64,000 nucleotides of DNA from Nitrosopumilus sp. GTDB taxonomy: Archaea > Thermoproteota > Nitrososphaeria > Nitrososphaerales > Nitrosopumilaceae. This document shows positions 16,212-53,147 of this stretch, piece after piece (the stretch's first letter is position 1; every line of letters starts with the position of its first letter). Location: positions 896,001-960,000 of the forward strand of contig OY763927.2 in assembly GCA_963667665.2 (NCBI GenBank). Reading direction: 5' to 3'. Made by a program: the position numbers and the translations under genes. Below the pieces are notes generated by a model. The model was given only the letters and a program-made list of their open reading frames with translations, was not told the origin of the DNA and did not search any database.

Positions 16212-16766
16212 GTGCAGGGATTAGATGTTTTTGATACTTTAGGCTTAACCTTAGCGTCTAATGATAATAAAATTGTAGGACGCACAACCATTCAAAAACT
16301 AATTTATTTTGAAACTATTAAAATTCCAGAAATTAAATTAAATCAGCCTTATTTTGCCTATTTTTATGGTCCATTTAACAAAAATGTGGCAAAATCTCTT
16401 GAACAAATGGTAATTCTTGATATTTTCGAAGAACATAGAACATATGACAACCATGGAAGTTATGTCTATAAAGTATCAGCCAAGGGTAATCCTCTGATCA
16501 ATAAACTTGTAAAGAAATCTGGAAAAATATTTGATAAAATTGAAAATATTGTTCATACATGTAATGAATACTGTAAATTAGATCCTAACCCACTATCTTT
16601 TGCAGCCAAAGTTCATTTCATGATGAGTTCTCCAAAATCTAAAAAAACCATGACGAATAACGAATTAATGAAGTTAGGAAAATCATTAGGCTGGAAATTA
16701 TCCAGATCTGATATAAAGGGTGGATCTGAATTGTTAAATCAGCTTAACCTTGTTAAAATCCAGTGA
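16212..16766 (+). CDS. YwgA / SocA(Panacea, DUF4065)-like winged-helix protein
   Basis: 'GRTTIQKLIYF' and 'YFYGPF' motifs. Confidence 0.7.
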   Translation: MQGLDVFDTLGLTLASNDNKIVGRTTIQKLIYFETIKIPEIKLNQPYFAYFYGPFNKNVAKSLEQMVILDIFEEHRTYDNHGSYVYKVSAKGNPLINKLVKKSGKIFDKIENIVHTCNEYCKLDPNPLSFAAKVHFMMSSPKSKKTMTNNELMKLGKSLGWKLSRSDIKGGSELLNQLNLVKIQ

Positions 16767-18066
16767 TAAACAATATTTCTCTTACAAATCTATTAGAGAT
16801 CCATTATATGGCTTCATTAATTTATCCAAAAAAGAAACAGAAATTATTGACACGTATGCATTTAGAAGATTACAAAACATCAAACAGCTCTCACATGCAT
16901 ATGTAGTATATCCATCAGCAGTACATACTAGATTTGAACATTCGTTAGGTGCTTTACATGTTGCCGATAGAATGTGTCAACAGTTAGGACTAGAAAGAAA
17001 AAAAAGAGAACTTGTCAGACTATCCATTCTTTTACATGATATTGGTCATGGTCCATTTTCTCATTTATTTGAACAGGTTTTAAAAAAAATCAATAAGGAA
17101 CAATTTGAACATGAAGATATTTCTACCTGGATTATTAACGAAAATTCTGAAATATCTTCAATTGTCAAAAATTATAAAAAATCAATAATTGAAATTCTTA
17201 AAAAAGACGACAGAGTTCCAAAATGGGAGTCTTCTGGCAACTCTCTTTTATCAGATATTGTTTCTAGTGGTCTTGATGCAGATAAACTAGATTACTTGAG
17301 ACGAGATTCTTATCATATTGGTGTTGCTTATGGACAATTTGATTTAGAAAGAGTTATTCAAACAATTAGATCAAATCAAAATAAAACTCGTCTCTGCATT
17401 GATGGTAAGGGTAAAGATTCTGTAGAAAATTACCGATTGGGTAGATATCTAATGCATGCCCAAGTATACGAACACCATACCAGAATTGTAGCAGATTCAA
17501 TGTTTTTGAAAGCCTTAGATTTAGCAATTACAAAGGAAAAAATTCTTGATAAAAAATTACTTACTATATCAAAAAATTCTTCTCATAAACGGTTTCTAAA
17601 ATACTATTTAGAATTAGATGATAGAAACATCTATGATACTATTCTTAAAAAACCACGTTCCGAAGCTGCAAAACTTCTAACTGCCATAAAACAACGTAAA
17701 TTATTGAAAAGAGCTTGTGATTATCCTATAACCTCTATGGTTAATGCAGATGTAGCCGAAAAAATTATAAAAATGAATACAAACGAATTAGAAAAAGAGA
17801 TAGCCAAAAAAACAAAAATTAACATCAATCAAATCATTGTATATTTCTCAGAAATTAACATAAAGTTATACGACAAACGTGACATACTAGTTCTTTGGAG
17901 AGGACAGCTAAAAGATTTCAATGATCTTTCCCCAATTTCAGCTCAATCATCAGTTCAAAGACTTTTGGTTTTTGGACCTAGAGATGATAACAAACGGAAA
18001 AAAATCACACAAGAAGTAGCAAACTATCTTAATATTCCAATGAAAGAAATTCGTCCAATGAGTTAG
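16750..18066 (+). CDS. HD-domain dNTP triphosphohydrolase (SAMHD1/YwfO-like)
   Basis: IRDPLYG, RRLQNIKQL, HTRFEHSLG, LLHDIGHGPFSH, DADKLDYLRRD, VYEHH. Confidence 0.9.
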   Translation: MLKSSDKQYFSYKSIRDPLYGFINLSKKETEIIDTYAFRRLQNIKQLSHAYVVYPSAVHTRFEHSLGALHVADRMCQQLGLERKKRELVRLSILLHDIGHGPFSHLFEQVLKKINKEQFEHEDISTWIINENSEISSIVKNYKKSIIEILKKDDRVPKWESSGNSLLSDIVSSGLDADKLDYLRRDSYHIGVAYGQFDLERVIQTIRSNQNKTRLCIDGKGKDSVENYRLGRYLMHAQVYEHHTRIVADSMFLKALDLAITKEKILDKKLLTISKNSSHKRFLKYYLELDDRNIYDTILKKPRSEAAKLLTAIKQRKLLKRACDYPITSMVNADVAEKIIKMNTNELEKEIAKKTKININQIIVYFSEINIKLYDKRDILVLWRGQLKDFNDLSPISAQSSVQRLLVFGPRDDNKRKKITQEVANYLNIPMKEIRPMS

Positions 18067-18102
18067 AAAACACAAAAATAATTATGAATTTAACTAAAAA
18101 TT

Positions 18103-18510
18103 ATGAATTTTAAATCTGAAATTAACCGAGACGAATTAATTCAAAAAGCTAGGGAAGCAAAAGAATTTGCTTATTGTCCTCACTCCGACTTTAAGGTTGG
18201 TGCTGCACTACTCTTAGAAAATGGAAAAATCATACTAGGTTGTAATGTGGAGAATATTTCTTATGGTGCAACAAACTGTGCTGAAAGAACAGCAATCTTC
18301 AAAGCAATATCTAATGGAGAACAATCATTTCAAGCAATAGCTATCTCGTCTTCTAGTTCTCCTGATAAACCAATTTACCCATGCGGAATTTGTAGACAAG
18401 TCATGGCTGAATTTAATCCTGAAATGATTGTCTATGTTGACGGAGATGAAACTTCTTACAAATTATCAGAGTTATTACCAAAATCATTTGACGAAAATCA
18501 AATGAAATAG
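18103..18510 (+). CDS. cdd: Cytidine deaminase (homotetrameric type)
   Basis: AYCPHSDFKVGAAL, GCNVEN, CAERTA, PCGICRQ. Confidence 0.92.
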   Translation: MNFKSEINRDELIQKAREAKEFAYCPHSDFKVGAALLLENGKIILGCNVENISYGATNCAERTAIFKAISNGEQSFQAIAISSSSSPDKPIYPCGICRQVMAEFNPEMIVYVDGDETSYKLSELLPKSFDENQMK

Positions 18511-20447: not shown

Positions 20448-21194
20448 CTAGATCGTTCCAATTCTAACTTGAGTATCAATCCACACTTGTAAAATCTCAA
20501 TAAACTCATAAACTGAAAAAATTACTAAATTCGCCAAAGTGATATAATTTCCTGGATGATCAATTCCCGATATTGGTTCTGAGATCTTTCTTTTTGCAAG
20601 ATCAAACTTAGCACTGAAAAAAGGTTCTTCTTTATGTGTTTGAAAATTTCTCATGTTATTTAGAACGTCTATAACTCCTCCATAATATTCATATAATTCA
20701 TTTTTTGCTTTTCTCCAATCCATACTTTGTTTATTGTCTTTTCTGCTTCTTGTTGTATATGGATTATTTTGTACATTTTGATAACGAATTTTAATATTTT
20801 CCCGATTAAATTTTTCTAAGAGATTATGCAAAGAATCATCTGGTTCCAATGCATGTTCACAAGAATTTTTCAAATAACCTTTGAATAATTTTAAAAACAT
20901 ATCTTTTAGTGCATGAGGAATATTTCTCAATAATTCATTTTCAATCCGCTGTAATTCATCGAAATCTTTAGGTATTGGAAAGTCTGTAGGAAAAATACTT
21001 GGAATAATACCTTGAGATAAATCATCATATGCCTTTTTAATATTTTCACTCACGTCTGGTGTAATTTCTTCAGTTGTTTTCATTAACTCAATAATTTTAT
21101 CATTTAATGATTCCCAGATCAAAGTTTGTGTGTCTTTTACTCTAACTCTTAAAATCAGATAACGATCAAAATTTGAAATTTCTTTGTTTGTCAA
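20448..21194 (-). CDS. Helical protein with RxxxxH motif (HEPN-like)
   Basis: 'LNNMRNFQTH'; starts immediately after the stop of the R-M-like gene. Confidence 0.55.
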   Translation of the reverse strand: MTNKEISNFDRYLILRVRVKDTQTLIWESLNDKIIELMKTTEEITPDVSENIKKAYDDLSQGIIPSIFPTDFPIPKDFDELQRIENELLRNIPHALKDMFLKLFKGYLKNSCEHALEPDDSLHNLLEKFNRENIKIRYQNVQNNPYTTRSRKDNKQSMDWRKAKNELYEYYGGVIDVLNNMRNFQTHKEEPFFSAKFDLAKRKISEPISGIDHPGNYITLANLVIFSVYEFIEILQVWIDTQVRIGTI

Positions 21195-23384
21195 TTATTC
21201 CTCATAATCAAATTTGAAAAGATTTTGTTTTTCAGCTTTTAGTTGTTTTTCAAGTTTTTCTATGTTGTTTAATTTATTATCTAATGCTACTAACTTTTTC
21301 TTTTGTTGATTAAGTGGAGTTTTAGGAATGATCAAAGAATTGAGATTGTCCATATTTATTCTAGAAATAAAATTTGCTTTGCTTTTTATTTTTAATTGTT
21401 CCTGCACACTTTCTGAATTGAGCACATATGCTAGAAATTTAGGAATGATTTTTTTTGGATCTGCTCTAATTACAGCTATTTGTGGACTGGGTAAAATTCC
21501 TACGTCTTTTTTACGTGTAATTCCTATTTTTCCAACTGTTCCCTGGCATGATAATAAAATATCATTTTCTTTGATTAAAAAATCAGAGTACTGTTTAGGA
21601 TATTGTATATAGATAGTTTTTGAAACCACATCCTTTATGAAACCATTTTCTATGTCTTGTATTCTAAGATATGGAGTGGGTGTCTTCTTACTATCTAGTT
21701 CAGAATCAACTGGAGATGGTTTCCCAAACCAAATTTTTCCTAATTTTTCTAATTCAATACCGTTTAGATTTTCGATAATCTTTTGTAATTCTGGTGTTTT
21801 GTCTGATACTGTCCATGTTTTAATCAAATCATTTTGATGTACATGAAAACTTTCAGAAGATGCTTTGAATGATTTTCCTTGTTCAAATTTTTGGAAATCA
21901 TTTTTAATTTTTCTTAAAACATTTGTCCTTAATTTTTTATCTTGAAATACATCTGTAGAAATATCCGACAAGAATACTCTGTTCCAATTTTCCTTACCTT
22001 CTTTTCTTTTGAAATTTAGAATTATCAAACTCATAGATATTCCTGTTTGAGGTAAAGCAATTCCTTGAGGAAATTGAATTATGGCTCTTAGATATCCTGG
22101 ATGTGCTAAAGAAAGACGAAGTGATTCTAAATTTTTCATTGCAAGAAAACTTGGAGGTACTAATAATGCAACTTTGGATAGGTTTTTTTGATTTTGTAAT
22201 TTTTTGATAATATATGCTAATTGTGTTCTTCCATAATTCCCATAAATTTTTCTTATTTCATCTCTTGATGAAATATCTGCACCAATTGGAGGAAAACAAA
22301 AAATGTACTCAAAATCGTTCATTTCCTTAGAATTTAAAAACAAATAATCTTTATTGACTAATTTTATTTCTTTTTCGTATAATTTAGAAATGACTTCTAA
22401 AATTTCACATACATCAGTATTTACTTCAACGCCTGCCAGATTTTTGGTTACATAATCATTTAATTGACTTTTAGTAAGTTTGTATTTTTTTTCAAATATC
22501 TCTGGTAAATCAAAAAGTGGACCATATCTTGCATATGGAATAAGTATTTTTTTATTTTTTAATGGATCAATTAAATCAAATATGAGATTGGATAGTTCTT
22601 TTGGATAATCAATCCAATCGTCTCTTAACAATAATTTTAACATTATTTTCCTAATTGCTTCTTTGTCTGATTTTAATAACGAATATTCTTTCACTGTATC
22701 AAACAATTCATAAAATTTTATTCTAGATAGTTTTTCTTCTGTAACTCTATGTGTACCAAACAAATTTGGAAATGTTCTCTTTCCTAATTCAAACAATTCA
22801 TTTATTTTTTCTTCTTTTGATTTGTTTGTGTCTTCTTCGAATAATTTTCCTTTGAATTCTGTTTCATCTAAAATTTTTAATGTAACAATTTGTAAAAATG
22901 GAGTATATTGATAAAAATCTCTTCTAACTATATCTGCAAGTATTTTTATTTGATAATTAGTTGCAGCAAGGGGTTTGAATTCATTTAATATTTTTTGAAT
23001 TTTATCAAAAAATTCCTTTTTTGGAATATCTTTGATTGGTAAAAGACTATTTCCCTTTAACTGAAATGTCTTTTTTTCTTTTCCATTATATAATATTCCA
23101 TATTCTGCTTTTGATTCTTTTAGATATTCTGAAAGTTGATGTTCAAAAAGTGGTAAAACCAAATTTCCTGTTTTTACTTCTACAATAATTCTTGGTTTTT
23201 TCTTTTCATCAAATACAACGACATTTGCTCTTTTTCCAGAATCTTCTCCAAGAAAGACTTCTCTTCCAATCTGTTTTGGAGGGAATCCATAGTCCTTCTT
23301 CAAAATCTTGATAATTTTTTCAACAAGTTCCACCTCCTTGATCATATCATATTCTTCATTATCGTTGTTTTTATTCATGTTCAT
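21195..23384 (-). CDS. Type I R-M-like fusion (HsdR-N-like nuclease + N6-MTase-like + one TRD) with degenerate catalytic motifs
   Basis: 'KRANVVVF..IIVEVK'; 'ILIPYARYG' at motif I; 'IFCFPPIG' at motif IV; TRD 'PYLRIQDIENG..ENDILLSCQGTVGK..IPKTPLNQQ'. Confidence 0.8.
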   Translation of the reverse strand: MNMNKNNDNEEYDMIKEVELVEKIIKILKKDYGFPPKQIGREVFLGEDSGKRANVVVFDEKKKPRIIVEVKTGNLVLPLFEHQLSEYLKESKAEYGILYNGKEKKTFQLKGNSLLPIKDIPKKEFFDKIQKILNEFKPLAATNYQIKILADIVRRDFYQYTPFLQIVTLKILDETEFKGKLFEEDTNKSKEEKINELFELGKRTFPNLFGTHRVTEEKLSRIKFYELFDTVKEYSLLKSDKEAIRKIMLKLLLRDDWIDYPKELSNLIFDLIDPLKNKKILIPYARYGPLFDLPEIFEKKYKLTKSQLNDYVTKNLAGVEVNTDVCEILEVISKLYEKEIKLVNKDYLFLNSKEMNDFEYIFCFPPIGADISSRDEIRKIYGNYGRTQLAYIIKKLQNQKNLSKVALLVPPSFLAMKNLESLRLSLAHPGYLRAIIQFPQGIALPQTGISMSLIILNFKRKEGKENWNRVFLSDISTDVFQDKKLRTNVLRKIKNDFQKFEQGKSFKASSESFHVHQNDLIKTWTVSDKTPELQKIIENLNGIELEKLGKIWFGKPSPVDSELDSKKTPTPYLRIQDIENGFIKDVVSKTIYIQYPKQYSDFLIKENDILLSCQGTVGKIGITRKKDVGILPSPQIAVIRADPKKIIPKFLAYVLNSESVQEQLKIKSKANFISRINMDNLNSLIIPKTPLNQQKKKLVALDNKLNNIEKLEKQLKAEKQNLFKFDYEE

Positions 23385-23414
23385 AATATGAAAAGAATCT
23401 AAAAAGCAATAATC

Positions 23415-23449
23415 TTAAATTTGGATAATACAAATATTTTTTGTACTAA
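23415..23449. promoter_or_regulatory. 35-bp site copy B in the divergent promoter between the R-M-like and CARF-like genes
   Basis: ttaaatttggataatacaaatattttttgtactaa; its last base is the A of the ATG. Confidence 0.85.
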
Positions 23450-24348
23450 TGGCAATATTCATAGCACCGATAGGAACTCACACTGAACATGTAAAGGGAT
23501 GGCTCAAAGAAGAATCTAGAGATGTAGATACTCTATGGCTGATTCATAGTAAAAAAAACATAAAGTTTGATTTTCCAAAGATTGCAAAAAAATTAGAAAA
23601 AGATCTAAATGCAGCATATCCACAAATCACAATAAAGAAAAAAATAATTGAAAGTGCATTTTCTGAAGACCCCACAATTGATGCTATACTTGAAATTATT
23701 CGCAAAGAGGAAGATGATGATTCCTCTATTATTCGAAAAGACTTTGTTGTAAATATCACAGGTGGTACTAACATTATTGCAGCAGCCACAATTCTTGCAG
23801 CAACATTTTATGGAACAAGAGCTCATTATGTTAAAGAACCACAAAAAGGTGATCCAAGGGGAACAAAATATGTTTACGAATTACCAATTCAACCAATAGG
23901 AATTGCTAGATTAAATCAAAATCAGTTAGATGTTTTAAAAATTATTGCAGACTCTACTTATGAAATAAATGATGTACCTAAAGGACTAGATAATAAAAAA
24001 ACACCTGGTTCTATTACACGATTTAAGTTACTCCAAAAACTTGGATGGGCAAAACCAGTAAAAGGATCAAAATTTCCAAGAAGAGAAGGAGGAACCAGAT
24101 TACTTGGAATCACAAAGAAATTAAGAGATGCTGGTTTAGTTGAACAAATAGATTTTATTGAATTTTATAAGGATCAAAATGAATCTAAAAAATCAAAAAT
24201 AGTATATCAGGATGGTTATGCAAAAAAAGTTGAAAATAAAAAATATGTTTCTGACTGGAAAATTTTAAGAAATGAAAGAGAAGTAAGATATGAGATAACT
24301 GCTGCAGGCAAACGTAAAGCAAGAGATGCCCTTATGTTTGATATTTAG
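23449..24348 (+). CDS. CARF-like (Csa3/DUF6293-like) + winged-HTH regulator
   Basis: 'IFIAPIGTH', 'LWLIHS', 'VVNITGGTNIIAAA..HYV', C-terminal 'KKLRDAGLVE..YEITAAGKR'. Confidence 0.75.
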   Translation: MAIFIAPIGTHTEHVKGWLKEESRDVDTLWLIHSKKNIKFDFPKIAKKLEKDLNAAYPQITIKKKIIESAFSEDPTIDAILEIIRKEEDDDSSIIRKDFVVNITGGTNIIAAATILAATFYGTRAHYVKEPQKGDPRGTKYVYELPIQPIGIARLNQNQLDVLKIIADSTYEINDVPKGLDNKKTPGSITRFKLLQKLGWAKPVKGSKFPRREGGTRLLGITKKLRDAGLVEQIDFIEFYKDQNESKKSKIVYQDGYAKKVENKKYVSDWKILRNEREVRYEITAAGKRKARDALMFDI

Positions 24349-24726: not shown

Positions 24727-26412
24727 TTATTCATAAATTCTTCTGATTTTGGAACCACAATTAGGGCATTGCTCTTTTGTATGAATAATTGAGCAGTCAG
24801 CACAGCAAAACTCGATTGGGGTAGATGCTGAGACGTTTTGTGGTTTCTGTTTTATCTCTGTGAGTTCCTTTTTAATGTCTGCAAATTCTTCTTGTTGCTG
24901 TTTTAGGATTATTTCATGTCTTGCAAGGGCTGATTTTTGTGATTTTTCTTCGGATTCTTTTTGTTTTAGTGTTGCAAGTGCATCATTTAGTTCTGCCTTC
25001 AGAACATCAGAATCATCAGTGCCATTAACTATTGATGTGAATTTTGTAAATATGTTAAGTCTTTTTGATGCCTTGGAGTATTCTTTTCGCAGATTTTCAG
25101 GAAATAATTTTGCTTGTTTTTTGTAAGAGTTTTTTGGTTTATGTCCTACTGATTCTTCAATTACATCTTCTCTACACCCACAATCAGTTAACACAGATAC
25201 CAATACGTCACGAATTTCATGTGAATCCATGTTGTAGATATTTTTGCCATTAGCTGTTTTGCCTATTATTTTTAATATTCCTGCTCTTTGTGCAATTTTA
25301 TGGAAGGAGTGGCTCACCCATGAATCTGTAACGGGGTTTCCAAATTTATTTAGAAATATTGGATCTCCCATTTGGATATTCTGTTTTGTTTGTTTTTTTC
25401 TAAAATCCAAATATCTTTGTAACTCATAAACTGCATCTCTGTCTAGAAATCCAATATGCTTGTAATCTACTTTAATTCTTACAAGAGTAATTGGTACAGG
25501 GCACTTGTCTAAATCCCATGAATTGTGATTCTCCGAGCCAAAATATTTCACTAATTGTTCCCATGCCTCAAAATTGAATCTGTCCACCAAGGTTGTTCTA
25601 TCCAATCCTCTTTGAAATTTACACAAAAATAATGCTTTTTCCATCATTGATGGCTTTCCAACAGTTAAAAATTTCATCAAATCAGATAATGACATGCTTT
25701 GTTCTTCGATCTCGTTATTATGAGTAATTGTAGGATCATACTGAAAATTAATCTCCTGTTCATTTCTTTCAAAATATGATATTATTGCAGATTTGATTAG
25801 TGTTAACGAATTTGCTTTAAAATTGATATGTTTCTCATCAAGAAGATATTGCTTTATGATTCGTATGATTGTTTTTTGTTCTATAAATGGTCCTTCTAAT
25901 ATGTCAAGAATTTCTTCTACGTTTTGAAATTTTTTATATTCTGTTTTTTGTACAAATGTGTTTTTATTGGTTCTATGGAGTAATGATATTTTGAATCTTC
26001 TTTCATTGTTTTCAATGTCGGGGGATGTAAGCCATTTGTTAAAATTCCACAATTGACGCAAATATGCTTTTTTGGTACTATCTTCTGCAGTTTTTGCGTT
26101 CTTTTGCCTGTTTCCTCTTAATTGTGATTGCCAATATTGTATTGATTTTAGATCTGTAAACCAGGCAGGGATGTAATTCTCATCAACTCTTTCAATCATT
26201 TTATGATCTTTTGCAAATTTTATCATCTTTTGACTTTTAATGAGGGCATTTTTCTTTTCGTTCTTGCATATTTTTAGAAGAAATTTTTTATTATTTTCAA
26301 ATAATGAGTTTACTGAAACGGTCTCACCTGTTTGTGGAAAGTGAATTTCTTCAAATAATTGCGGAAATTCTAGATTATTTTTGACAACTTTGTACAGGTA
26401 TGACTGTTTCAC
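24727..26412 (-). CDS. Tyrosine recombinase/integrase with C-terminal coiled coil and zinc ribbon
   Basis: FQRGLD, RIKVD, HEIRD (HxxR), VGH...Y; CADC..CPNC. Confidence 0.85.
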   Translation of the reverse strand: MKQSYLYKVVKNNLEFPQLFEEIHFPQTGETVSVNSLFENNKKFLLKICKNEKKNALIKSQKMIKFAKDHKMIERVDENYIPAWFTDLKSIQYWQSQLRGNRQKNAKTAEDSTKKAYLRQLWNFNKWLTSPDIENNERRFKISLLHRTNKNTFVQKTEYKKFQNVEEILDILEGPFIEQKTIIRIIKQYLLDEKHINFKANSLTLIKSAIISYFERNEQEINFQYDPTITHNNEIEEQSMSLSDLMKFLTVGKPSMMEKALFLCKFQRGLDRTTLVDRFNFEAWEQLVKYFGSENHNSWDLDKCPVPITLVRIKVDYKHIGFLDRDAVYELQRYLDFRKKQTKQNIQMGDPIFLNKFGNPVTDSWVSHSFHKIAQRAGILKIIGKTANGKNIYNMDSHEIRDVLVSVLTDCGCREDVIEESVGHKPKNSYKKQAKLFPENLRKEYSKASKRLNIFTKFTSIVNGTDDSDVLKAELNDALATLKQKESEEKSQKSALARHEIILKQQQEEFADIKKELTEIKQKPQNVSASTPIEFCCADCSIIHTKEQCPNCGSKIRRIYE

Positions 26413-26487: not shown

Positions 26488-27942
26488 TTGAATTCTAGTT
26501 TGAGTAAAGAAGACAAAGGGATCACAGTTTCAAAAAAAGAAGATTTTAGTGAATGGTACACACAGATAGTTCTTAAAGCCAAACTTGCAGATTATGCACC
26601 AGTTAAAGGACTAATTGTTCTTAGACCTGATGGATATTCTATTTGGGAATCATTAAGAAACACATTTGATAAAAAATTTGCAAATAATGGAATCAGAAAT
26701 GGGTTTCTGCCTATTTTAATTCCAGAGTCATTGTTAAGTAAAGAGCAAAAACACTTTGCTGGATTTAATCCAGAAGTATTTTGGGTAACTCATTCAGGGA
26801 ATAATGAAATTGGAGACAGGCTTGCATTAAGACCTACATCTGAAACTTTAGCATACACAATGTATGCCAAATGGATTCAAAGTTGGAGAGATTTACCATT
26901 AAAGATTAATTTTTGGAATACAGCACTTAGAGCAGAGATCAAAGGAACAAAACCATTTCTTAGAACATCCGAATTTTTGTGGCAAGAAGGTCATACAGTA
27001 CATGCAACACAAGAAGAAGCGGAAGAAGAAGTGATGAAAATATTAGAGATTTATAAAAAAACTGTTGAAGAAGAGTTGGCAATTCCAGTAACAACAGGAA
27101 GGAAAAGTGAGAAAGAAAAGTTTGTAGGTGCAGTATACACAACCACTATGGAATCCATTATGCCAGATGGGAAGGCATTACAAATGGGCACATCACATTT
27201 TCTAGGACAAAATTTTTCAAAACCATTTGAAGTAAAATTTGCAGACAAAGACAATGTAGAGCATTTTGCATGGCAAACATCATGGGGAGTTTCTTGGAGA
27301 CTAATTGGTGCAATGATAATGATTCATGGTGATGATCAAGGTCTTGTGTTACCACCAAAGATAGCACCAATGCAAGTTGTAATTGTACCAATTTACAAAA
27401 ATGATGAAGGCAAAGATAAGGTATTACCCAAAGTAGAAGAAATTAGAAAAAATCTAGAGTCAAAAGAAATCAGAGTACATGTTGATGATAGAAGTGAATT
27501 ATCTCCAGGATACAAATTCAATGATTGGGAACTAAAAGGAGTTCCTATACGAATAGAGATAGGCCCTAAAGACATAGAAAAGAAGAGCATAGTTCTTGCA
27601 AAAAGATACAATCGTGAAAAGTCAAGTTTAGGTTTTTCTGAAATTGAAAAAATCCCCCCTATCTTAGATGAAATACAAAATGACATGTTAAAAACTGCTA
27701 GAGAACAAACGAAAGCAAATACCATAGATATTTCAGACTATACTGAATTCAAATCAAAAATTGAGAAAGGGGGTTTCTTTAGTGCTCCTTGGTGTGGAAA
27801 ATTAGAATGTGAGGAAAAAATTAAAGAGGAAACAGGTGCAGATATCAGAGTAATTCCATTTGGTAGTGAAAATACAGAGAAAAAATGCATGTATTGCCAA
27901 GAACAAAGTATTTCAATCCCGATTTTTGCGAGAGGATACTAA
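26488..27942 (+). CDS. proS: Proline--tRNA ligase
   Basis: DFSEWY, LRPTSET, FLRTSEFLWQEGHT, TSWGVSWR. Confidence 0.97.
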   Translation: MNSSLSKEDKGITVSKKEDFSEWYTQIVLKAKLADYAPVKGLIVLRPDGYSIWESLRNTFDKKFANNGIRNGFLPILIPESLLSKEQKHFAGFNPEVFWVTHSGNNEIGDRLALRPTSETLAYTMYAKWIQSWRDLPLKINFWNTALRAEIKGTKPFLRTSEFLWQEGHTVHATQEEAEEEVMKILEIYKKTVEEELAIPVTTGRKSEKEKFVGAVYTTTMESIMPDGKALQMGTSHFLGQNFSKPFEVKFADKDNVEHFAWQTSWGVSWRLIGAMIMIHGDDQGLVLPPKIAPMQVVIVPIYKNDEGKDKVLPKVEEIRKNLESKEIRVHVDDRSELSPGYKFNDWELKGVPIRIEIGPKDIEKKSIVLAKRYNREKSSLGFSEIEKIPPILDEIQNDMLKTAREQTKANTIDISDYTEFKSKIEKGGFFSAPWCGKLECEEKIKEETGADIRVIPFGSENTEKKCMYCQEQSISIPIFARGY

Positions 27943-52863: not shown

Positions 52864-53147
52864 ATGTGAGCTGGAGCACGACACGCTGCTACGGCAGAGG
52901 AAACTCCTCCCTCCATACAGGAAATGTGATCTGGAGATAGATAATCAGAGATGATTGGCAACGGAGCAGAAAAAAATCCAATATGGCGCACAATGATGGC
53001 AAAACCTGAGATTTCCATAAAAGGAATGAAAAAAGCCGACCCACATGGAGCAAGGCCAAACAGAACTCAAGGTTCCTGTACCAAGTTCAGGTAGGCTGCA
53101 AAGCGGAATATCGTGAAAACAGAAGGAGGGTTACTCCCAGCACACAT
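52864..53147 (+). ncRNA. rnpB: RNase P RNA
   Basis: GAGGAAACTCC and AAAACAGAAGGAGGGTTA conserved P4 strands; complementary ends (atgtg..gctgg / ccagc..cacat); GC-rich intergenic island followed by a T-run. Confidence 0.9.

Follow-up and report, generated by a model that had tools for sequence, protein, structure and literature searches.

A catalytically degenerate restriction-modification fusion paired with a HEPN-like gene in Nitrosopumilus: a possible guard or decoy system

INTRODUCTION

PrrC is a HEPN anticodon nuclease that is kept latent by the type I restriction-modification (R-M) enzyme EcoprrI, and at least 16 HEPN clades have been linked to R-M systems, as outlined in the survey by Anantharaman et al. 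(2013; PMC3710099). In Ronin of E. coli ECOR55, which consists of HsdM, HsdS, and RonA, HsdMS has been reported to restrain a death effector, and a mutant in the NPPF sequence of motif IV is still active (bioRxiv 10.1101/2023.04.06.535777). Few archaeal defense systems are recognized beyond R-M and CRISPR (PMC12988326), and a study on the integrated elements of thaumarchaea reports type I R-M genes as cargo and does not report the module considered here (PMC6563490). In this study, we analyzed two adjacent genes of a Nitrosopumilus sp. located in what we call the window, that is, the whole stretch of 64,000 nucleotides corresponding to C1:896001-960000 of a 1.89-Mb genome (99.97% complete). 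The first gene encodes P0001, a fusion of restriction, modification, and specificity parts (R-M-S fusion) with a degenerate methyltransferase (MTase) domain, and the second one encodes P0002, a HEPN-like protein. We tentatively propose, with a confidence that falls a little short of even, that P0001 and P0002 constitute a restriction-linked abortive-infection module, in which a pseudo-enzyme would act as a sensor and restrain a HEPN-type RNase.

The locus would share with PrrC-EcoprrI the proposed logic, namely, that an R-M protein holds an RNase in check (PMC3710099). The likeness extends to the gene context, where a probable HEPN effector occurs within or beside type I hsdMSR genes in four of the five genomes carrying the partner family, as well as on metagenome contig L002, but not at the window; the analogy with PrrC put forward in a preliminary description of this DNA, which was based on the sequence alone, fits these neighborhoods. 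Different from PrrC, which has an N-terminal ABC-type NTPase domain, P0002 is an all-helical protein of 248 amino acids (aa) without an NTPase. Moreover, a dedicated dead R-M-S fusion takes the place of the type I enzyme in one sub-clade, genes for a CARF-winged helix-turn-helix (CARF-wHTH) protein and for a Cas4-like protein are constant neighbors, and the host is an archaeon.

The likeness to Ronin would consist, by analogy, in an R-M-like DNA-binding module that restrains an effector without working restriction and in which MTase catalysis is dispensable. In Ronin, HsdM has an intact NPPF motif and a membrane peptide of 61 aa acts as the effector, whereas in P0001/P0002 the M and S parts form one chain together with a nuclease domain, the loss of motif IV is natural, and the putative effector is a soluble HEPN-like protein of 248 aa. 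A HEPN-type gene in conserved R-M neighborhoods, proposed as a second line of defense, is also the feature in common with the R-M-linked HEPN clades (AbiU2, AbiJ, ApeA, EC042_2821, and others; PMC3710099), but none of the Pfam models of those clades matches the P0002 family, which was found here in genomes of one archaeal family. HEPN defense coupled to R-M is already known; the unusual traits of the present locus are the naturally dead MTase scaffold, the new HEPN-like family, and the constant CARF-wHTH and Cas4-like neighbors in Archaea. A literature search (supplements excluded) did not bring up any earlier account of an R-M-S fusion that has a dead MTase and is paired with a HEPN gene.

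RESULTS AND DISCUSSION

Architecture of the fusion protein

P0001 presents, in a single chain, an N-terminal PD-(D/E)xK nuclease domain, a gamma-class N6-adenine MTase fold, and one target recognition domain (TRD), which is the domain order and the fold of type IIG enzymes of the BpuSI type (Table 1). In the AlphaFold model (pLDDT 83.1), the Rossmann-fold region is well ordered. The best Foldseek match of the model is BpuSI itself (3s1s; E value, 2.4e-23; 844 alignment columns), followed by the M-S type I methylase of Vibrio vulnificus solved with Ocr and then by CamA, M.TaqI, DrdV, and BsaXI. The TRD was recognized also by the PADLOC model Specificity_I (E value, 1.5e-19) and by the HsdS structures 5ybb_D and 3okg_A of the PDB.

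The catalytic motifs do not follow the architecture. The preliminary description had reported an intact frame of 729 aa with its TRD and the sequences RANVVV, LIPYARYG, and FPPI, all of which were confirmed in the translation. In particular, the nuclease motif KRANVVVF, followed by IIVEVK, contains N54 in place of the catalytic Asp, so that N54-E69-K71 stands where a full D...(D/E)xK triad is expected. The motif I region is ILIPYARYG (IPYARYG, residues 282 to 288) instead of (D/E)xxxGxG, and motif IV is CFPPIG (FPPI, residues 364 to 367) instead of (N/D/S)PP(Y/F/W). Pfam hmmscan gave no N6_Mtase match for P0001 at an E value of ≤1. With respect to BpuSI-type enzymes, the clade of P0001 has lost motif IV of the (N/D)PP(Y/F/W) type and the GxG of motif I, while the loss of the nuclease Asp concerns P0001; a further difference is that the P0001-type fusion is obligately paired with a HEPN-like gene. 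Automated pipelines would annotate P0001 as a type IIG enzyme or as a type I specificity or methylase protein, counting it as working R-M.

In the remainder of the window, no further N6_Mtase match and no HSDR_N match occurred. The earlier statement that neither hsdR nor an active hsdM is present thus holds for the window only: relatives of the pair adjoin canonical type I systems, and elsewhere the same genome contains an hsdM-like frame as well as hsdS and hsdR as an orphan pair.

Conservation of the dead methylase

We found four homologues of P0001 at 45 to 60% identity, two at 34% and 26%, and one at about 25% in genome G193, and the degenerate clade considered below comprises eight proteins (P0001, P0006 to P0009, P0024, P0025, and the G193 protein). 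In the alignments, none of the eight has the acidic residue or the GxG of motif I, and motif IV reads FPPI, FPPI, MPPI, LPPV, DPPL, LPPI, FPPI, and QPPF. It follows from this common loss, for which an alignment of homologues had been proposed as a check, that P0001 represents a conserved pseudo-methylase and not a decayed gene. Among seven more distant relatives, six (L004, P0041, P0044, P0038, P0011, and P0012) display a motif I of the DPACGxGGF type together with NPPF, and the seventh, P0010, is degenerate in its own manner. Three fusions of about 730 aa from related genomes (L038 to L040) possess an intact motif I, NPPF or HPPF as motif IV, and N6_Mtase scores of 103 to 112 bits. HPPF replaces NPPF in the fusions L039:6028-8244 and L040:6174-8366; one of the two is located beside McrBC-like genes, and beside the other there is a type I system accompanied by a YgjP-like peptidase.

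The reading frames of the clade remain open over 718 to 756 codons at 23 to 61% identity in DNA of about 30% GC, and such long frames at high divergence in AT-rich DNA argue for purifying selection. At this distance, synonymous changes between orthologues have reached saturation, and the close members of the cluster show no differences. The mean identity within the clade is highest in the TRD (55.6%), and the MTase core (47.8%) belongs to the least conserved parts, together with the linker at positions 140 to 260 (46.3%) and the C-terminal helix (43.1%). The open frames and a TRD conserved above the MTase core argue, on the basis of sequence comparison, for a protein that is maintained and non-methylating. 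A pattern scan of viral contigs and genome contigs (alignments A1 and A2) did not find relatives.

Cofactor binding may have outlived methyl transfer. The acidic residue of motif II occurs in all 11 aligned proteins and one glycine of motif I is nearly invariant, which suggests that binding of S-adenosylmethionine (SAM) may persist in the clade.

The loss of the nuclease Asp, listed earlier as part of the degeneration, is not a family trait. The D-to-N replacement is peculiar to the lineage of P0001: the Asp is kept in seven of the eight clade members, and the full D..E.K triad is kept in six, the G193 fusion having lost the Lys. RAN was found in every fragment of the 90% cluster of P0001 that covers the nuclease part, with fragments deriving from several assemblies, and the P0001 sequence is identical among fragments of several assemblies.

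The prevalence of the complete triad makes it conceivable that P0001-type proteins are working restriction nucleases that do not methylate, in which the dead MTase and the TRD only position the nuclease and the HEPN-like protein forms a second layer of its own. The targets could be modified or foreign DNA, in a type IV-like manner, or sites protected by a neighboring type I methylase; SAM could serve as a cofactor, and the window copy, with its N54, would be a nuclease-dead derivative. Many type IIG enzymes need SAM for cleavage, and the motif II residue and the motif I glycine mentioned above are compatible with SAM binding. Furthermore, the closest fold is that of an active type IIG enzyme, and both L002 and G193 have an adjacent canonical type I system. 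On the other hand, one triad residue is missing in two of the eight proteins, the identity between the TRD of the fusion and that of the adjacent HsdS is no more than 24 to 28%, so that a shared specificity is unlikely, and the strict pairing of abutting or overlapping genes suggests a complex rather than two independent layers. We consider this explanation somewhat unlikely, although it is the main alternative.

The HEPN-like partner

The TTG start codon of P0002 directly follows the TAA stop codon of the P0001 gene, as had been noticed in the preliminary description, and aligns with the ATG of homologues. The motif RNFQTH (RxxxxH), also reported there, maps to residues 182 to 187 and corresponds to the conserved Rx4-6H motif of HEPN proteins. 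R182, N183, F184, and H187 are invariant in an alignment of 11 sequences of the partner family; in an alignment of 44 sequences, R137 and H187 are invariant, and R182, F129, R202, and Q236 are conserved in at least 90%. A polar Asn after the Arg is common in HEPN motifs, and the helix carrying R182 and H187 occupies what we take to be about the same relative position as in HepT. The family is rare and includes 57 representatives, retrieved by a profile search of 1.84 billion representatives, and close variants of P0002 (82 to 94% identity) retain RNFQTH.

By sequence, P0002 had no match in Pfam, NCBIfam, PADLOC, or PHROGs, a Pfam scan of 30 family members recovered no HEPN model, and the family profile (alignment A4) retrieved only coiled-coil noise among PDB sequences. 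A cluster of the Atlas with HEPN_RiboL-PSP in 15% of its members scored 0.90 for P0002, which we regard only as a lead. The AlphaFold2 (AF2) model (pLDDT 90.0; predicted TM score, 0.88) is all-helical. Foldseek found nothing in the PDB at an E value of ≤0.001, with Csm6 at rank 3 (E value, 0.48). With VIA-align, HEPN toxins reached Z scores of 6.7 to 8.6, with 90 to 100% of the HEPN chains aligned and the lowest root mean square deviations (rmsd) in the lists. In particular, HepT/SO_3166-type toxins were matched with Z scores of 7.4 to 8.0 and rmsd values of 3.4 to 4.4 Å (HepT 6m6u_D: Z score of 8.0, 3.4 Å, 126 of 131 residues), TM0613 (1o3u) with a Z score of 7.6 at 3.2 Å over 120 of 120 residues, and Roquin with a Z score of 8.6. 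Further HEPN matches were 5yep_B, 8xdj, 2hsb, 7ae2, 1ufb, 4nqf, and HepS 9oik, and AF_0298, TT1696, and YutE are among the matched proteins. At least 15 distinct HEPN-domain entries, aligned nearly in full length, appear among the two top-50 lists. Helical bundles can reach such Z scores by arrangement alone, and rhodopsins and G protein-coupled receptors fall in the same range (rhodopsins, 8.0 to 8.7).

Taken together, the conserved motif and the all-helical model indicate that P0002 is probably a HEPN-type protein, with a predicted fold whose match is no better than that of generic helix bundles. The earlier designation of the partner as HEPN-like agrees with the motif and with the helical model; the Foldseek check suggested for it gave no significant match, and the Z scores equal those of rhodopsins.

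The same data bear on the possibility that P0002 is a helical structural or regulatory subunit, for instance an adaptor between the R-M proteins and the CARF regulator, with an Rx4H likeness that is coincidental. This would agree with the failure to recognize a HEPN family by sequence in 30 members or by the profile against PDB sequences, and with Z scores equal to those of unrelated helix bundles. It would not account for an invariant H187 and a nearly invariant R182 followed by Asn, for the HEPN entries matched nearly in full length in the two lists, or for a place beside R-M operons that is typical of HEPN genes (PMC3710099), and we judge it very improbable.

Near-identical HEPN-like proteins, among them P0015 and P0016, which are close relatives of P0002, differ by one or two extra tandem copies of a unit of about 14 residues (QNNPYTTRSRRNNN). 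These repeats fall in alignment columns 145 to 172, in the loop of lowest model confidence.

Gene neighborhood and pairing

Two conserved neighbors, in addition to the genes of the preliminary description, flank the pair: a divergent gene for P0004, a probable ligand-sensing transcription regulator of the CARF-wHTH type, and the gene for the Cas4-like protein P0003. An intergenic region of 64 bp (positions 23385 to 23448) separates the P0001 and P0004 genes. In the window, the Cas4-like, HEPN-like, and RMS-like genes lie on one strand and the CARF gene lies on the other, with no hsdMSR. With a broad profile, the partner family was detected in five genomes out of 401 from the class, all five from one family, and in none of the 83 other same-genus genomes searched; a separate count of 34 of 401 genomes consists mostly of TRD-level matches and includes one unpublished genome (G282), which was not used for any conclusion. 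Each of the five copies has CARF-wHTH and Cas4-like genes as neighbors, and four of them adjoin a complete type I hsdMSR operon.

The arrangement differs among these four genomes. In G074, the Cas4-like and HEPN-like genes are on one strand and the CARF-wHTH, HsdM, HsdS, and HsdR genes are on the other. In G024, one strand bears HsdS, HsdR, HsdS, HsdM, and CARF genes, and the other bears the gene for a HEPN-like protein of 388 aa and an open reading frame (ORF) of 145 aa, with the Cas4-like gene about 4.3 kb further. G157 has Cas4-like, 145-aa ORF, and CARF on one strand and a 371-aa HEPN-like protein, HsdM, HsdS, HsdR, and HsdS on the other. In G193, HsdR, a split HsdS, two HsdM, and CARF are opposite to the degenerate RMS-like, HEPN-like, and Cas4-like genes, and the HEPN-like protein (285 aa; profile E value, 1.8e-59) has the motif RNMTDH. 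Contig L002 has the same layout as G193. Downstream of its Cas4-like gene, G193 carries genes for an integrase and for an AIPR (abortive-infection) protein (L037:14230-17816), and this copy of the island, too, looks mobile and stacked with defense genes.

In L002, L028, L029, L030, and L037, a homologue of P0004 adjoins either the HEPN-like gene or the pair of RMS-like and HEPN-like genes. The Cas4-like copies of G024, G074, G157, and G193 are 66 to 84% identical and within about 4.5 kb of the HEPN-like gene, compared with only 28 to 37% identity for the HEPN-like proteins of these genomes. Since no more than 5 of the 121 genomes of the archaeal family have the Cas4-like gene, it belongs to the island and not to the core genome.

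The pairing anticipated in the preliminary description is conserved, given that the partner is directly downstream of the degenerate fusion in all four sequenced contexts (window, L001, L002/L003, and G193). The same pairing probably applies to P0006/P0017 and to P0007/P0020, judging from contigs of equal size. No partner of the P0002 family accompanies the three fusions with an intact motif I (L038 to L040). The partner family is thus an accessory of type I R-M loci, like PrrC, and one of its sub-clades acquired a dead R-M-S fusion immediately upstream. A specificity shared between the fusion and the neighboring HsdS was considered and rejected in view of the TRD divergence reported above.

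The longer relatives of the partner (316 to 394 aa) have N-terminal extensions, which showed no match to Pfam or to another family and have no counterpart in the window. ORFs of 145 to 146 aa recur beside the HEPN-like or the CARF gene (L029:10602-11039, L030:7799-8236, L002:12979-13419, and L003:2833-3273); Pfam and PHROGs gave no match for them, and tblastn did not find a counterpart in the window.

Proposed mechanism

It is possible to hypothesize that P0001 derives from the active R-M-S (type IIG-like) fusions of about 730 aa common in this archaeal family and that it would have lost methyl transfer while retaining both the MTase fold and the TRD, with the nuclease triad preserved in most relatives. 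P0002 would be a latent HEPN-type RNase effector, and P0001 would be a DNA-shaped sensor and the restrainer of the RNase, with a role like that of EcoprrI for PrrC and of HsdMS for RonA. With stop and start codons abutting, the two genes may be translated as a pair, whose transcription would probably be set by the divergent CARF-wHTH protein. An invader that disturbs the pseudo-enzyme would free the RNase, and translation would be stopped; possible disturbances include a DNA mimic or another anti-restriction factor, the binding by the TRD of DNA that is unmodified or unusual, and the loss of SAM.

A narrower form of this hypothesis sees in the dead fusion a built-in decoy that imitates the DNA- and SAM-binding face of a type I or type IIG enzyme and that, when struck, releases the HEPN RNase of the new family. 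The strike could be a viral DNA-mimic protein or a depletion of SAM sensed through the kept motif II pocket, and a small-molecule signal would be linked to the module by way of the CARF-wHTH protein. We regard the decoy as unlikely in this specific form. To our knowledge, nothing is known on anti-restriction warfare in ammonia-oxidizing archaea.

Several observations weigh against a sensor that restrains an RNase. The paired cases all come from one clade, and the correlation between dead MTase and partner reflects few independent events. The HEPN match of P0002 is not above the helical-bundle background, with no Foldseek match at the threshold used and no HEPN Pfam model in the 30 members scanned. 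The triad preserved in most of the clade would be easier to explain if DNA cleavage matters, and the HEPN-like genes of G024, G074, and G157 occur without an RMS-like protein, which indicates that the pseudo-enzyme is not needed family-wide. According to the survey by Anantharaman et al. (PMC3710099), R-M-linked HEPN domains are fused to nuclease, helicase, or ATPase subunits and not to methylases. A co-fold of P0001 with P0002 (alignments A6 and A4) reached a best score of 0.31 against a mark of 0.32 in a run without controls, and it speaks neither for nor against the proposed binding. Finally, the window copy might be partly decayed, with its nuclease Asp lost and the type I system of its own genome apparently broken.

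Whatever its mechanism, the locus is a concrete module of four parts, made of a new HEPN-like family, a methylation-dead scaffold under selection, a non-CRISPR CARF-type regulator, and a Cas4-like gene. The guard model, if true, would extend the logic of PrrC and Ronin to Archaea, with an R-M enzyme turned into a sensor. The decoy, if true, would be the first decoy/guard immunity described in Archaea, and a natural instance of a methyltransferase turned into a pure sensor.

Genomic island and host genome

The archaeal RNase P RNA at positions 52866 to 53145 identifies the window, whose GC content is about 31%, as archaeal. In two same-genus genomes, the prolyl-tRNA synthetase gene (window position 26488 onward) is joined directly to the counterpart of C1:874516-874889, which delimits C1:874890-922457 as a strain-specific island of about 47.6 kb covering positions 1 to 26457 of the window. 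A tyrosine-recombinase-like integrase is located at its right end, no tRNA or other RNA was found at its ends, and its other cargo includes a TraG/HerA-like ATPase, an HNH endonuclease, an HD/dGTPase-like gene, and a deaminase gene.

Elsewhere in the genome, an hsdS-hsdR pair has a DDE_3 transposase as its neighbor and no adjacent hsdM, and a frame with an hsdM-like N6_Mtase domain continues into an IS240-type DDE transposase domain. Insertion sequence elements thus appear to have broken up the canonical type I system of this genome, and the module of the window stands alone. MmeI-like and Eco57I-like enzymes are also encoded in the genome.

In such a setting, the pair could be a decaying remnant without a present function. 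N54, the dead MTase, the lack of a cognate type I system, and the abundance of mobile genes in the island would be in line with decay, as would the fusion of the hsdM-like frame into a transposase domain, the orphan hsdS-hsdR, and the absence of the pair from the 83 same-genus genomes searched. Both frames, however, are intact, and the identity of P0001 across assemblies speaks against ongoing erosion; the MTase degeneracy is ancient, being common to proteins that are only 23 to 61% identical, and does not reflect a recent decay; and the partner variants preserve RNFQTH. We regard a remnant as the least probable of the explanations considered.

Table 1. Features of the window and of the host genome discussed in the text (window positions unless preceded by C1)
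Feature	Position	Strand	Evidence
R-M-S fusion P0001, 729 aa, BpuSI-like single chain, degenerate N6-MTase domain	21195..23384	-	ORF translation, Pfam, AF2, Foldseek
N-terminal PD-(D/E)xK nuclease domain of P0001 (residues 23-121)	23022..23318	-	Pfam HSDR_N_2, E 1.5e-12
N6-MTase-fold domain of P0001	21816..22604	-	PF02384 six-frame genome search, 45.7 bits, E 3.4e-12
Single TRD of P0001 (residues 544-717) with C-terminal helix	21234..21755	-	Pfam Methylase_S, E 3e-12
HEPN-like partner P0002, 248 aa	20448..21194	-	ORF; family without Pfam match; AF2 all-alpha
Rx4H motif RNFQTH of P0002 (residues 182-187)	20634..20651	-	Alignments
CARF-like (HFX_2341_N) protein P0004, 299 aa, divergent	23449..24348	+	PADLOC CARF3, E 4.7e-22; Pfam HFX_2341_N, E 4.7e-06, 27.5 bits (cut-off 30)
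Cas4-like PD-(D/E)xK nuclease P0003 with Cys cluster, 254 aa	19603..20367	-	NCBIfam cas4, E 4.3e-13; PADLOC Cas4
Tyrosine-recombinase-like integrase, right end of island	24727..26412	-	Pfam Phage_integrase, E 5.5e-06, 26.7 bits (curated cut-off 27.1)
Apparently broken-up type I genes of the same genome (loci L018, L017)	C1:403772-405247 and C1:1490110-1494323

Other features of the window

An element of about 110 nucleotides at positions 2873 to 2984 is 87 to 89% identical to one place in genome G008 and to two places in G100, and it was assigned to no tRNA or RNA family by ARAGORN or Rfam. Positions 1 to 2000 are GC rich (54%) and contain overlapping ORFs; the DNA matches 69 places in the same-genus genome G076 at 64 to 83% identity and looks like a part of a large repeat-protein gene family. 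At positions 16750 to 18510 of the window, within the island, a gene with HD and HD_assoc_2 domains (dGTPase-like) directly precedes the cytidine/deoxycytidylate deaminase gene, a combination that we take to resemble nucleotide-depletion defense genes.

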